DNA of 36,640 nt from Candidatus Dadabacteria bacterium (GCA_050247635.1 JBFWTW010000003.1:1-36640); one strand, 5' to 3'. Positions 15,736-26,163 are shown, counted from the first letter of the stretch. Notes: generated by a model not told the origin, from the letters alone. Program-made: numbers and translations.

Positions 15736-17112
15736 TTAGCTGAGGAGGCCCATTTTCTTCATCCTGTACCGGAGATTCTGCCTGTTCATTTTGAGCGCTC
15801 CGGCGGCGCGCGTCTGATTCCAGTTGTTCTGCTCGAGCGTCTTTCTAATTATCCTCTGCTCGATGTCCTCGAGCGAGGAATCGTCGAGGTCGACTTCGAG
15901 CTTCATTTTCCCGTCCTGCTCGTCGAGGTTTACGTTGCCCCCATCCAGATCGAGAGAAATGTAACGCGGGTTAAGCTCCTCTCCTTCGCTGAGTATCATC
16001 GCCCGCTCGACAGTGCTCCTGAGCTCGCGCACGTTGCCCGGCCAGTTGTAGGCGTGGAAGGCGCGCCTCACTTCCTCGGGGACAATCTGTATGGTCTTGT
16101 TAATGTCGTTATTGAAGAACCGGATGAAATGGTCCGTAAGTAGCGGTATGTCTTCCTTTCTTTCCCTGAGACACGGCATTTCGAAGCTGATAACGTTGAG
16201 CCTGTGGTAGAGATCCTGTCTGAATTTGCCGTTTTTCACCTCGTCCCTGAGGTCTTTGTTGGTGGCGGCGATTACCTGCAAATCGACCTTGATATCTTTT
16301 TTCCCCCCGAGCCTCCTGAACTTTCTTTCCTCGACGACCTTGACGAGCTTGGCCTGGAGATTAAGGCTCATGTCCCCTATTTCGTCGAGGAGGATCGTCC
16401 CGCCGTCCGCGTCCTCGAAAATCCCGGACTTCGATTTCTTGGCGTCGGTGAACGAGCCGGCCTCGTATCCGAAGAGCTCGCTTTCGAGGAGGTTCTCGGG
16501 TATCGCGGCGCAGTTCATTTCGAGAAACGGCTTTTCGGCCCTCCGCCCGCTGTAATGCAGCACTTTCGCGGCCAGGCCCTTTCCCGTCCCGGTCTCGCCC
16601 GTGATAAGCACCATGCGCGGATCCTCGGCGGCGAGTTTCGTGAGAAGCTCAGTCAGGTTTTTAATTACCGGGCTCACGCCGATGAGCGCCCCGATGCCGT
16701 GCTTCTGTTTTTCGTGCTTTGTCGCCACGGCCACCGTCTTTTTGAGGTTCGCTGAGTTAAGCGCGTTCTGGAGTATGATCTTTATCTTGTCTACTGGGAA
16801 GGGCTTCTCGACGAAGTCGTACGCGCCGAGCCGCATGGCCGATACGGCCGCTTCGATGTAGCCGTGCGCTGTGATCATTATCGTTATCGGCGGCTGATCG
16901 AGCTCGTTGAGGCTCTTTATGACGTCGAGGCCGTTTATGTCGGGGAGCTTAAGATCGATAATCGCGACCCTGGGCGTCAGCTCGCGGGCGATCTCTATGC
17001 CATCCCTACCGTTGAATGCTGTGAAAACGTCGTACCCGGAATCCGAGAGGTTCTTGGCGAGCTTCTTCGTGAAGAACACCTCGTCGTCTACAAGCAATAT
17101 TGTTTTAGGCAT
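15736..17112 (-). CDS. NtrC-family sigma54-dependent response regulator (receiver, AAA+, Fis-HTH)
   Basis: LVDDE and IIDLKLPD receiver; GETGTGKG; ESELFGYEAGSFTDA; LLDEIG; WPGNVREL; C-terminal HTH NQTRAA...LRYRMKK. Confidence 0.95.
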   Translation of the reverse strand: MPKTILLVDDEVFFTKKLAKNLSDSGYDVFTAFNGRDGIEIARELTPRVAIIDLKLPDINGLDVIKSLNELDQPPITIMITAHGYIEAAVSAMRLGAYDFVEKPFPVDKIKIILQNALNSANLKKTVAVATKHEKQKHGIGALIGVSPVIKNLTELLTKLAAEDPRMVLITGETGTGKGLAAKVLHYSGRRAEKPFLEMNCAAIPENLLESELFGYEAGSFTDAKKSKSGIFEDADGGTILLDEIGDMSLNLQAKLVKVVEERKFRRLGGKKDIKVDLQVIAATNKDLRDEVKNGKFRQDLYHRLNVISFEMPCLRERKEDIPLLTDHFIRFFNNDINKTIQIVPEEVRRAFHAYNWPGNVRELRSTVERAMILSEGEELNPRYISLDLDGGNVNLDEQDGKMKLEVDLDDSSLEDIEQRIIRKTLEQNNWNQTRAAGALKMNRQNLRYRMKKMGLLS

Positions 17113-18440
17113 TATATTACCTCCGTTGTGGTTATTTCCCCTTCGCTGAGGTTAGTGGGCAGAGTGAGCGTAAACCGGCTGCCTTTCTCCTCACGGCTTT
17201 CCACCGTTATCTTTCCTTTGTGGACTTCGATTATGCGTTTTGAAATTGCGAGCCCGAGCCCGGTGCCGGTCTTCTTGGTAGAGAAGAACGGCTCGAATAT
17301 TCTTTCCATATCCATTTGCGTGATGCCCGAGCCCGAATCCGAGACCTCTATGTTGAACGTATCGCCGGAATTGTAGGACCTTATGGTGATCTTCCCGTCC
17401 GGGCCTTCTATGGAATCTATGGCGTTTAAGACGAGATTCATCAGCACCTGCTCCATGAGCTCGAAATCGAGGACTATTTCGCGATCGTCCGGAGCGGGGA
17501 TGACCTCGATGTCTATGGACTTTAGTCTCGCGTTGGAAGATGTGAGGCTGACGACCCTCTCGACGAGCTCGTTCGGGTCGCCGCTTACGAGGCTGACCTC
17601 GCGCGGCTTTGCGAGCTGGAAGAGCTCTTTTATTATATTGTCGAGCCTGCTGACCTCGTTTATTATCTCCTGGATTCGCCCGTCCCTCTCGCCGTACATG
17701 TTCCCCGACTTCAGGTTTTCGAGCGCGACCGCTATGCCCGAGAGCGGGTTTCGGATTTCGTGGGCTATCCTGGTGGCTATCTCTCCGATAGTGGCCAGCT
17801 TCTCGGTCCTGAGAAGCTCTGCATGCTTTTCTTCGAGGTCGGCCTTAACCTCGCTGACCTTATCTTCGAGCACCCGGTTGAACTTCCTCGTCTCCTCGAG
17901 GAGCGTATTGTTGAGCGCGTCCTTGTCCTTGAGCTCGGCGTTTTTACTCTCGAGCTCGTCGTGCTCTCTTTCTATGCTCGAAAGCATCCTGTTGAACGAC
18001 GAGACCAGCTTCGCTATCTCGTCCGTGCCGTTTATGTCCTTCACCCTGTAGGAGTAATCTCCGTCTCTCACGTTTTCGGTAGCCTCGACGAGGCTGAGCA
18101 CGGGCTTTGTGATTCTCCTGGGGAACATCACGGTTACGATGCCGCCGAAGAGTATCGCCAGCGTGGCAACGGAAATGATGTTCATGTATGCAATCGCGAT
18201 CTGTTGGTTGGCCGCTTTTATGGCCCCGAACAGGTTCTCTTTCTCGAAAATATTCCGGGACGCCTCGTTCTCGTCCGTTATGCCGGTGATTATTTCCGTC
18301 AGGGTATATTGCTTGTCGCCGACCATGGATTTGGTGTTCTTGAGACCGTCGATGCTGAACATGCAAAATAAGCTCACGGCGATGATTATCAAAAGCATGA
18401 TGAGATATCCAATCCTTATTTGTTTATCGAGAGTCATCAA
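17112..18440 (-). CDS. Membrane sensor histidine kinase (2 TM, HAMP, coiled coil, HisKA, HATPase)
   Basis: H-box AHEIRNPL, N-box NLVLNAID, DSGSGI, FEPFFSTK and GTGLGL. Confidence 0.95.
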   Translation of the reverse strand: MMTLDKQIRIGYLIMLLIIIAVSLFCMFSIDGLKNTKSMVGDKQYTLTEIITGITDENEASRNIFEKENLFGAIKAANQQIAIAYMNIISVATLAILFGGIVTVMFPRRITKPVLSLVEATENVRDGDYSYRVKDINGTDEIAKLVSSFNRMLSSIEREHDELESKNAELKDKDALNNTLLEETRKFNRVLEDKVSEVKADLEEKHAELLRTEKLATIGEIATRIAHEIRNPLSGIAVALENLKSGNMYGERDGRIQEIINEVSRLDNIIKELFQLAKPREVSLVSGDPNELVERVVSLTSSNARLKSIDIEVIPAPDDREIVLDFELMEQVLMNLVLNAIDSIEGPDGKITIRSYNSGDTFNIEVSDSGSGITQMDMERIFEPFFSTKKTGTGLGLAISKRIIEVHKGKITVESREEKGSRFTLTLPTNLSEGEITTTEVI

Positions 18441-18481
18441 TATCCCCTGTGTGTATAAAATCTGGCTTACAAACTAAAATG

Positions 18482-18496
18482 GCAAGTTTGATGCCA
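18482..18496 (-). promoter_or_regulatory. Sigma54 -24/-12 promoter driving the kinase-regulator operon
   Basis: Minus strand TGGCAT-CAAAC-TTGC with exact GG-N10-GC spacing, about 42 bp before the kinase start. Confidence 0.8.
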
Positions 18497-18602
18497 CATA
18501 GGGGAAGGGCGTAAATCGGAGAATATAATTAGTAATGACAGGGGATTAAGTGTGAATGCTCACTCATTTTCGAATAAGTAGACTCGGAGGCGTACAGGCC
18601 CA

Positions 18603-18646
18603 ACTGTACAAATTTAAACAGTCGATACTTTATAATTTTAAACAGT
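18603..18646. promoter_or_regulatory. Tandem upstream activator (enhancer) boxes, pair 1
   Basis: acTGT-acaaatttaa-ACAgt (TGT at 18605) and acTTT-ataattttaa-ACAgt (18629); 24-bp offset; lies between divergent sigma54 promoters. Confidence 0.75.
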
Positions 18647-18721
18647 TGGGGCCCGGCAGCGCCCCCCGTGGTCTTTGTAAGCCTCCATCAACAATCGGGA
18701 TTAGGAGTCTTTCGGCCGGAG

Positions 18722-25151: not shown

Positions 25152-25472
25152 ATGTTTAAGAAGAGCCTGATTGCTATGATGGGAATATTCATGCTGATTG
25201 CGGCATATGCCTGCGACGGCGACAAGACGACCGGCGAGGTTATAGACGACACCGTTATAACCTCGACGGTTAAGACGAAGCTCCTGGCCGATTCCGGTGT
25301 CAGCGGTTTTGACATCGACGTCGACACCGACGAGGGAATCGTCGAGCTTAACGGGATTGTGAGCACGGAAGCCGAATCCCAAAAGGCCGAATCGATAGCC
25401 GAGGACGTTGACGGCGTCGTTTCGGTAAAGAACAACCTTACGGTGGACTCATCCACGGCGGACTCTATGTAG
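25152..25472 (+). CDS. Single BON-domain (OsmY-like) lipoprotein
   Basis: Lipobox AYAC; IDDTVITSTVKTKL...IDVDTDEGIVELNG...VDGVVSVKNNL. Confidence 0.92.
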   Translation: MFKKSLIAMMGIFMLIAAYACDGDKTTGEVIDDTVITSTVKTKLLADSGVSGFDIDVDTDEGIVELNGIVSTEAESQKAESIAEDVDGVVSVKNNLTVDSSTADSM

Positions 25473-25498
25473 CCGGGGATTAATAACAGGAGGCGGCA

Positions 25499-25633
25499 AT
25501 GCAGCTCAATCTGGAACTGACACCGGTAGTATCGCTGATTGCGGGAGTTCTGATTCTGATATTCCCACGAATACTCAACTACGTGATAGCGATATACCTG
25601 ATAATCATAGGTATTCTCGGCCTCGTCGGCTGA
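25499..25633 (+). CDS. DUF3096 family small membrane protein (44 aa)
   Basis: Translated by hand: MQLNLELTPVVSLIAGVLILIFPRILNYVIAIYLIIIGILGLVG; AGGAGG RBS. Confidence 0.9.
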   Translation: MQLNLELTPVVSLIAGVLILIFPRILNYVIAIYLIIIGILGLVG

Positions 25634-25667
25634 GAAACGGAAAGATAAACACATGAGGAAACATAAG

Positions 25668-25829
25668 ATGACGAAACTTAGACGATTTCTTTTCCTTGTA
25701 CTCCTCGGGATTTCGGCCGCAGGCATTTATGCATGCCCCGATAACGACGGGCCCGCCGAAAGAGCCGGGGAGCGAATTGATGACGCCGCCGAAGATGTAG
25801 GCGACAAGATGGAAGACGCTGCGGATTAG
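25668..25829 (+). CDS. Small acidic helical lipoprotein (53 aa)
   Basis: Translated by hand: MTKLRRFLFLVLLGISAAGIYAC-PDNDGPAERAGERIDDAAEDVGDKMEDAAD; GAGGA RBS; lipobox IYAC. Confidence 0.82.
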   Translation: MTKLRRFLFLVLLGISAAGIYACPDNDGPAERAGERIDDAAEDVGDKMEDAAD

Positions 25830-26001
25830 GAAAGACAAGCAGTTTATAACAAATGGCTGAATGCAGTAAAAGTGGACGGCTTGGCGTAACAACCGGTTGA
25901 GACGACAGGAGAGAGGGTGGATGGATATGACGAATATCGAACCTGCTCTCTTCGTCTCGCCGGCCGCCTGAAAAAGAAAATAAAGCGAGGAGGTGTTTAA
26001 C

Positions 26002-26163
26002 ATGCTGCACTGGACTCTGGTTTTTCTGGTGATTGCGATAATAGCGGCAGTGCTGGGGTTCTCCGGAATAGCGGGGGCTGCGGCGGGTATAGCCAAGATT
26101 CTGTTTATCGTATTTCTGGTGATATTTATAGTTTCACTGATATTCGGCAGACGCGCAGTTTAG
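26002..26163 (+). CDS. ytjA: DUF1328 / YtjA family small membrane protein (53 aa)
   Basis: Translated by hand: [63 protein letters not shown]. Confidence 0.92.

Follow-up and report, generated by a model that had tools for sequence, protein, structure and literature searches.

Predicted sigma-54 control of a stress-protein gene cluster beside a kinase/NtrC-type regulator pair in Candidatus Dadabacteria

The locus described here occupies positions 15736 to 26163 of a 36,640-base stretch of DNA (the window), which is the entire contig C3 of a metagenome-assembled genome (MAG), coded G000, of an uncultured, marine-type member of Candidatus Dadabacteria. The MAG comprises 3.12 Mb (3,123,512 bases) in 357 contigs and is 92.8% complete and 8.3% contaminated. 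The locus encodes a membrane histidine kinase and an NtrC-type response regulator on the minus strand, and three operons of stress-type proteins on the plus strand. Promoter-like elements of the -24/-12 type, the class read by sigma-54 (RpoN), precede the kinase-regulator operon and each of the stress operons. The arrangement is probably a sigma-54-dependent regulon, in which the adjacent, presumably autoregulated kinase/regulator pair is the most likely activator of the three stress operons. The pair, the promoters and the stress genes are as follows.

15736-17112, minus strand: NtrC-type response regulator, 458 amino acids (Pfam Response_reg, Sigma54_activat at 218 bits, AAA_lid_14 and HTH_8)
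17112-18437, minus strand: membrane histidine kinase, 441 amino acids (Pfam HAMP, HisKA and HATPase_c)
18496-18482, minus strand: -24/-12 element TGGCATCAAACTTGC of the kinase-regulator operon, ending 45 nucleotides before the ATG at 18437 (minus)
18722-18736, plus strand: -24/-12 element CGGCATGGTTCTTGC of the cupredoxin-like/ChaB operon, ending 72 nucleotides before the start at 18808
18808-19236, plus strand: cupredoxin-like exported protein (Pfam Cupredoxin_1, 26.4 bits against a cut-off of 27)
19277-19504, plus strand: ChaB (Pfam, 91.8 bits)
21845-21859, plus strand: -24/-12 element TGGCATGCATTTTGC of the csbD operon, ending 87 nucleotides before the start at 21946
21946-22143, plus strand: CsbD (Pfam)
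22253-22405, plus strand: DUF3309 protein (Pfam)
22421-22930, plus strand: DUF892/YciF-like protein (Pfam)
22957-23382, plus strand: Iron_permease family protein (Pfam)
24697-24711, plus strand: -24/-12 element TGGTACGGATATTGC of the YHS-BON operon, ending 48 nucleotides before the start at 24759
24759-25118, plus strand: tandem YHS/TRASH protein (Pfam YHS)
25152-25472, plus strand: BON lipoprotein (Pfam BON)
25499-25633, plus strand: DUF3096 protein (Pfam)
25653-25829, plus strand: small lipoprotein-like open reading frame without a Pfam family match
25993 (or ATG 26002) to 26163, plus strand: DUF1328 protein (Pfam)

An earlier interpretation, made from the bases of the window alone (the sequence-only reading), had named these genes. 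Pfam confirms its calls for the regulator with REC, Sigma54_activat and HTH_8 domains, the HAMP kinase, ChaB, CsbD, DUF3309, DUF892, Iron_permease, YHS, BON, DUF3096 and DUF1328. Two labels are softer: the cupredoxin falls just below the Pfam cut-off and the lipoprotein lacks a family. The cupredoxin-like protein also gives a weak match to the EfeO model, limited to the N-terminal portion of that model (34.4 bits against a cut-off of 270, E 1.2e-8).

The regulator has the hallmarks of an enhancer-binding protein of the NtrC family. Its receiver carries an acidic pocket and Asp53, its AAA+ domain a Walker A motif (GETGTGKG) and a GAFTGA-type L1 loop, and its C-terminus a Fis-type helix-turn-helix. 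The loop reads GSFTDA, a variant that retains the F and T of GAFTGA, and GAFTDA in orthologues. Receiver Asp, Walker A, G(S/A)FTDA loop and helix-turn-helix are all kept in the orthologues. The best solved relative is 4l4u, titled NtrC-family transcriptional regulator (E 3.5e-96). The kinase stop codon overlaps the regulator start by one base, and the kinase itself starts at ATG 18437 behind AGGGGA. Its layout is two hydrophobic segments around an outer loop, HAMP, a coiled-coil linker, HisKA with His226, and HATPase. In an alignment of seven orthologues the N-terminus, both hydrophobic segments, HAMP and the His226 box are conserved, and the outer loop of about 55 residues is short, acidic and variable. 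A loop of this kind might fit envelope or ionic sensing better than it fits a ligand-binding domain. Together, the short acidic loop and the gene content suggest, as a best guess, that the signal is an envelope or ionic/osmotic stress and not a metabolite. Neither protein reaches the cut-off of any NCBIfam equivalog. The regulator scores 415.4 bits against AtoC (cut-off 714), 332.6 against ZraR (760) and 296.5 against GlrR (763); the kinase scores 230.7 against AtoS (646) and 206.8 against ZraS (479), with likeness confined to the catalytic core. Identity as AtoSC was accordingly rejected.

The four promoter elements stand out from the background of the window. They had been proposed as correctly spaced -24/-12 elements in front of these operons, and both points are upheld: all four are present and are the only matches to GGYAYN5TTGC in the window, against a shuffle mean of 0.87 and no shuffle of 100 with four. 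Every one is intergenic, aimed at a gene, and lies 45-87 nucleotides from a start codon with a ribosome-binding site. They carry zero to two mismatches to the consensus, with GG and GC 10 nucleotides apart. The same pattern occurs 103 times in the whole genome, a density from which about 0.2 matches would be expected in the 6.2 kb that hold the four. The alternative pattern TGGCACN5TTGC, with at most one mismatch, also gives four matches (shuffle mean 1.42; 5 of 100 shuffles reach four), three of which are promoters already described. The fourth, at 33943, was rejected as a promoter, as CC replaces GC at -12 and the site lies inside an M23 peptidase open reading frame.

That the GG-N10-GC matches are chance or non-functional, with the operons read from sigma-70-type promoters, is highly improbable. 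Weak sigma-70 matches at 9 of 12 positions do lie near two of the sites (21818-21845 and 24708-24735), and the consensus scan returned eight weak matches over the region against 5.0 +/- 2.5 in shuffles, a count uninformative about basal promoters. The same scan of the region found no strong sigma-70 match. Beyond the shuffles, this alternative must contend with an rpoN gene in the genome (Sigma54_DBD at 193 bits in a 508-residue open frame on contig C56; Pfam) and with conservation of the elements over three to four genera within otherwise diverged spacers.

That conservation was traced from the kinase. Among 41 genomes of the window's order, its own included, orthologues occur in nine related genomes, six from the same genus (79-94% identity) and three from two further genera (65, 55 and 55%); the remaining matches, at 38-45%, are at the level of paralogues. 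In all nine related genomes, which with the window represent three genera, the pair adjoins stress genes, so that the synteny looked for between kinase/regulator and stress genes is kept. Counting the window in, the -24/-12 element of the kinase operon is found at 10/10 loci, as is the divergent element on the cupredoxin side. Where csbD has a promoter of its own and the region is covered, the csbD element is present at all six loci, and the YHS element likewise at 6/6. Loss of the GG and GC dinucleotides from orthologous regions had been named as grounds for abandoning the sigma-54 reading; the dinucleotides are conserved throughout. The more distant loci are nearer to the consensus, at 10-12 of 12 positions. 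In alignments, enhancer sites, -24/-12 elements and ribosome-binding sites form conserved islands amid diverged spacers. Even the unusual TGGTAC of the YHS promoter recurs in orthologues, and also as TGGTACGGATTTTGCC before the BON operon of G008. A wider survey of csbD, over 120 genomes of the phylum and confined to it, found 22 CsbD loci, spread over 20 genomes. Of the 15 loci in the window's family (f1), 14 are preceded by a -24/-12 element, as are three of the seven in family f7 (genus g19), where there is also one weak case. Predicted sigma-54 control of this stress-protein set in the phylum is thus well supported by sequence comparison.

Each promoter is also preceded, about 100-125 bp upstream, by an enhancer-like motif of the form TGT-N10-ACA in an AACA flavour. 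The putative enhancers were located by motif search and weight matrix.

18605-18620 TGTACAAATTTAAACA and 18629-18644 TTTATAATTTTAAACA: putative enhancer (upstream activating sequence) pair common to the divergent kinase and cupredoxin promoters
21744-21759 TGTCTAATATTAAACA: putative enhancer of the csbD promoter, 101 bp upstream of it
24571-24586 TGTTCAATATTCAACA and 24595-24610 TGTCATCTTCACTACA: putative enhancer pair of the YHS promoter, 126 and 102 bp upstream, in a conserved block

For the two members of the first pair, the distance to the cupredoxin promoter is 117 and 93 bp and that to the kinase promoter 124 and 148 bp; the 18605-18620 member is invariant in seven aligned sequences of genus g1. 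A degenerate second site, seen by eye at 21720-21735, stands 24 bp further upstream of the csbD enhancer. In a prior-free search, the best 16-mer common to the three regulatory regions was the TGT...AACA site, with a score that none of 200 shuffles reached. The motif is rare. The window holds seven TGT-N10-ACA sites, four of them within about 610 bp of regulatory regions, and the genome only 193. Such a site lies 40-220 bp upstream of 22 of 456 promoter-like sites in the genome, mostly near -100 to -130, and at -100 to -104 in 10 of the 15 csbD loci of family f1. A genome scan with the enhancer motif had been proposed, and in the weight-matrix version every pair of at least 18 bits falls in this locus. 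The matrix was trained on the locus and its orthologues, and the training sites therefore match by construction; the informative outcome is that no pair of at least 18 bits lies upstream of any other promoter-like site.

Between enhancer and -24 of the cupredoxin promoter lies a conserved palindrome, AATCGGGATT at 18693-18702, which reads TAATCGGGATTA in relatives; a GTAAGC-like block occupies the equivalent relative place in the aligned YHS regions. The palindrome may be a site for a bending protein or a second regulator. By eye, no convincing consensus for integration host factor was found between enhancer and -24, and Rfam at gathering scores gave no match in the whole window.

From these features a mechanism of a standard kind may be proposed, combining a two-component system, an enhancer-binding protein and sigma-54. 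(i) Each of the three operons would be read from its -24/-12 promoter and stay silent until an enhancer-binding ATPase acts. (ii) The adjacent membrane HAMP kinase would phosphorylate the adjacent NtrC-type regulator on Asp53. (iii) At each promoter, dimers of the regulator would occupy one or two of the TGT-N10-ACA sites, some 100-125 bp upstream. (iv) Bound regulator would oligomerise and remodel the RpoN holoenzyme via its G(S/A)FTDA loop. (v) The -24/-12 promoter of the kinase-regulator operon, sharing its enhancer with the divergent cupredoxin promoter, would confer positive autoregulation, as in zraSR/zraP. It is the common enhancer region of these divergent promoters that implies autoregulation. 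The protein that binds the sites, control by phosphorylation and autoregulation itself are what we infer from this arrangement. The gene set under such control is unexpected, and the phylum is uncultured.

Paralogous kinase/regulator pairs bear on the choice of activator. One such pair (contig C145 of G000, and G005, G008 and G010) is divergent from two sigma-54 operons of its own, which encode secreted proteins of no recognised family. Its enhancers are mostly TGTAC...GTACA; one G008 site ends in AACA. This pair adjoins its own sigma-54 targets, and adjacency therefore tracks cognate control in this kinase/regulator family. A further paralogous pair, in family f7, has TGTG...CACA sites at its own promoters, and the same flavour occurs at the csbD genes of genus g19. 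By eye, TGT-N10-ACA falls into three inner flavours, TGTT/AACA, TGTA/TACA and TGTG/CACA, perhaps one for each of three paralogous HAMP-kinase/NtrC-type pairs. Examples of enhancer-like sites elsewhere in G000 are C145:1180, C145:2867, C82:661, C174:5569 and C316:330.

Several observations weigh against the adjacent pair as sole activator, or against the wider reach of this interpretation. Genus g3 (G008, G017 and G024; 93-98% complete) keeps the stress cluster with sigma-54 promoters and TGT...AACA-type sites. These promoters precede ChaB, DUF1328-CsbD-Iron_permease and BON-DUF3096-DUF1328, and include the unusual TGGTACGGAT-TTGCC. No orthologue of the window's regulator was found in the three g3 genomes, which have only two paralogous regulators. 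The best DNA-binding-domain identity there is 52-54%, against 94% in G005 and 78% in G010 (78-94% in g1 and g5). Since g3 keeps the promoters without a regulator orthologue, another enhancer-binding protein can serve them. The csbD promoters of genus g19 are of sigma-54 type, but their enhancer flavour differs (TGTGTAAATTTACACA). At the csbD loci of genera g17 and g22 no -24/-12 element was found upstream, and a sigma-70-like promoter was read by eye at the G036 locus (genus g17). Within the window, the 16-mer at 24595 scores poorly in the matrix (8.1 bits); the enhancer flavours were sorted by eye; and the MAG carries the contamination given above.

The g3 genomes give most substance to a different account, in which the promoters do depend on sigma-54 while a paralogous enhancer-binding protein from another locus acts as main activator; the adjacent pair would be accessory or limited to its own and the cupredoxin operons. 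Candidates abound, as a profile search of the genome gives about 15 strong Sigma54_activat matches, and the TGT-N10-ACA shape is common to the sites of several paralogues. Moreover, the csbD enhancer flavour of family f7 is that found beside a paralogous kinase/regulator operon (L044). This account is nevertheless unlikely: the adjacent arrangement is kept in three genera, the promoter of the kinase operon has AACA-flavour sites similar to those of the csbD and YHS promoters, and the C145-type paralogue has adjacent targets of its own with a mostly distinct flavour. Control by the neighbouring kinase/regulator is therefore likely but not exclusive. The earlier proposal that the gene set is wired to RpoN through the adjacent pair stands in its first part, on rpoN, the conserved elements and the prior-free enhancer motif. 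The link to the pair is favoured by divergent synteny and a common enhancer, and exclusivity fails in g3. For the same reason the description of the regulon as self-contained had to be given up.

The closest known layout is that of ZraS/ZraR/ZraP, the sigma-54 system of E. coli and Salmonella for envelope and zinc stress. There, according to the part of the source available (PMC4987338), a kinase and NtrC-type regulator operon lies divergent from its target, both sigma-54 promoters are served by the regulator, and the system is autoregulated. The likeness raises the question of whether the locus mediates a ZraSR-type response specific to metals (Fe/Cu/Zn) or to the envelope rather than general stress, with the CsbD, BON and DUF1328 genes as passengers. 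Metal-associated members are certainly numerous: the cupredoxin/EfeO-like protein, YHS/TRASH, Iron_permease and the ferritin-like DUF892, joined by a ferritin in the G016 locus. An iron-uptake cluster also lies upstream in the window (385-9729), with a TonB-dependent receptor, a PepSY_TM protein, an ABC importer with its solute-binding protein, TonB and ExbB. In contrast with ZraSR, however, the regulator and kinase fall far below the equivalog cut-offs, no ZraP-like family occurs among the locus proteins (Pfam), and the kinase has a short outer loop in place of a periplasmic metal-binding domain. The presumed targets here are three operons for proteins of the CsbD/BON/DUF1328 type, and the core common across genera is CsbD/DUF1328/DUF3309/DUF892. 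A metal- or envelope-specific response is on balance fairly unlikely.

Two further systems invite comparison. GlrK/GlrR (QseE/QseF) likewise combines a HAMP-type membrane kinase with a sigma-54 regulator reading a TGT...ACA-type palindrome. The GlrR site given in the available part of PMC4987338 is TGTC(N)10GACA, in which the TGT and ACA triplets are 12 bases apart, as opposed to 10 here. The score to the GlrR model is low, as noted, and GlrR targets are small RNAs, not stress proteins. In Desulfovibrio vulgaris, the sigma-54 response regulator DVU3305 is assigned to 'general stress' in the parts of PMC3333781 and PMC4641369 that were seen. The targets of DVU3303-3305 given there are UspA-domain and membrane proteins, and the system includes a Lon-protease response regulator; neither the Lon-protease response regulator family nor UspA is among the Pfam results for the locus described here. 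In the literature search, from which subscription journals and supplements were out of reach, no paper was found describing sigma-54/RpoN wiring of CsbD, DUF1328, DUF892, YciF or osmY, nor Dadabacteria in connection with sigma factors. Sigma-54 wiring thus appears new for this gene set; a sigma-54 'general stress' regulator with other targets is already published for Desulfovibrio (DVU3305), as far as those sources extend.

CsbD/YjbJ, YciF/DUF892, OsmY/BON, YtjA/DUF1328 and ChaB belong, in other bacteria, to stress regulons under SigB, RpoS or EcfG/PhyR. The gene content of those regulons is alike, but control there is by sigma-70-family factors, through partner switching or proteolysis, whereas sigma-54 promoters needing an ATPase activator are predicted here. 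Promoter conservation argues strongly that CsbD, YciF, OsmY/BON, YtjA and ChaB are read by sigma-54 in this phylum, and the Pfam families of the locus would fit a general stress response. Against that designation, the genome has 24 Sigma70_r2 matches, many for 3.1 Mb, although contamination may inflate the count. Twelve RpoD/RpoS-like matches of the sigma-70 family score 174-288 bits to the RpoS model, none above the cut-off; they lie on contigs C8, C207, C130, C83, C1, C174, C178, C92, C33, C58, C13 and C5. No RpoS equivalog thus passes in the genome, and no search aimed at PhyR/EcfG or SigB was made. With so many sigma-70-family factors, the regulon need not be the organism's general stress response.

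A broader proposal can be put forward tentatively, and is at present more doubtful than the regulon itself. In Dadabacteria, the conserved core of general-stress proteins (CsbD, YciF/DUF892, OsmY/BON, YtjA/DUF1328, ChaB and others with them) might be expressed from sigma-54 promoters, with a small set of paralogous HAMP-kinase/NtrC-type pairs as gatekeepers. The TGT-N10-ACA enhancers of these pairs would vary in the inner positions of the half-sites. If so, this would be a fourth general-stress architecture beside SigB, RpoS and EcfG/PhyR, in which phosphorylation and ATP hydrolysis switch on silent promoters, in place of sigma-70-family factors competing with one another. A protective gene set would have been recruited to a promoter class without basal leak and with an obligatory ATPase switch, a natural contrast from which to learn why cells adopt one control logic and not another. 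The locus supplies testable parts from an uncultured phylum, namely the kinase, the regulator, four promoters and defined enhancer-like sites, and E. coli could serve as host for their reconstitution. With what looks like one enhancer flavour for each of three paralogous regulators, the family would make a compact system in which to study divergence of NtrC-type DNA-binding domains.

Elsewhere in the genome, a few genes resemble members of the regulon. The weight matrix matches glnB-glnA on contig C108, which was rejected as a member as it is presumably under NtrC. Such a match shows that the matrix lacks full specificity, and weaker matches were kept out of the regulon. A second DUF892-like gene, recognized by sequence likeness, is present in two near-identical contig copies (G000:C37:4505-5055, minus strand, and C303:539-1089), and a PfpI/DJ-1-like gene was identified by eye at G000:C19:9789-10418. 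Both have a sigma-54-like promoter and a moderate-scoring TGT-N10-ACA site, at -78 and -113, respectively. The DUF892 paralogue and the PfpI/DJ-1-like gene may belong, as distal members, to this regulon or to a paralogous one, and were not added here. At G000:C105:1321-1997, a perfect -24/-12 element, TGGCACGCGTATTGCA, precedes the gene for a secreted protein of 207 amino acids with two beta-rich repeats. Its counterparts, encoded within the stress cluster, are 59% identical to it in G010 and about 50% identical in G016 and G023. The counterpart genes are followed by DUF1328 in G010, G016 and G023, and by DUF2254 too in G010 and G023. A search of three further genomes from the window's genus did not find the protein; the contig may therefore not belong to the organism, and the gene was left out of the regulon.

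RNA contigs from four runs were compared with the window. Assembled contigs cannot show transcription starts or levels; run X1 is probably DNA, and run X2 gave only short pieces with loose ends. Run X3, a marine metatranscriptome, supplied contigs from a relative (90-95% identity) that match 18865-19472, 21911-22092, 22466-22865 and 24760-26087, all inside the three stress operons. A single X3 contig of 1,341 letters spans 24760-26087, from YHS to DUF1328, and shows neither a start nor a single transcript. These contigs are compatible with transcription of the three operons, a weak hint. None falls on the kinase, most of the cNMP-reductase/zf-UBP genes or the endonuclease/exonuclease/phosphatase gene described below; missing cover proves nothing and was not used as evidence.

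The remaining features of the locus lie within and between the stress operons.

19780-21706, between the ChaB and csbD operons: cNMP-binding/thioredoxin-reductase-like fusion (550 amino acids) and small zf-UBP protein (Pfam)
22189-22205, after csbD and before DUF3309: terminator-like hairpin with T run (terminator scan)
23381-23404, after the Iron_permease gene: terminator-like hairpin (terminator scan)
23388-24446, minus strand, between the csbD and YHS operons: endonuclease/exonuclease/phosphatase family gene (Pfam)

The terminator scan gave 11 matches against 8.6 +/- 2.7 in shuffles and is uninformative as a count. Partial termination after csbD may allow CsbD to be made in excess over the products of the downstream genes. 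The cNMP-reductase/zf-UBP insert has no -24/-12 element; its presence at this position is peculiar to the window's genus, and the G010, G016 and G023 loci do not have it. The endonuclease/exonuclease/phosphatase gene, likewise without an element of its own, occupies the same position in G010 and G023. A conserved block, gataatgatgatgtcatgca, at about 24469-24488, immediately precedes the start of this gene, and the gene's upstream region abuts the YHS enhancer. On the far side of the locus, the gene for a Kef-type Na/H exchanger (13956-15704; TrkA_N domain) is convergent with the regulator gene, a position that it keeps across the window's genus.

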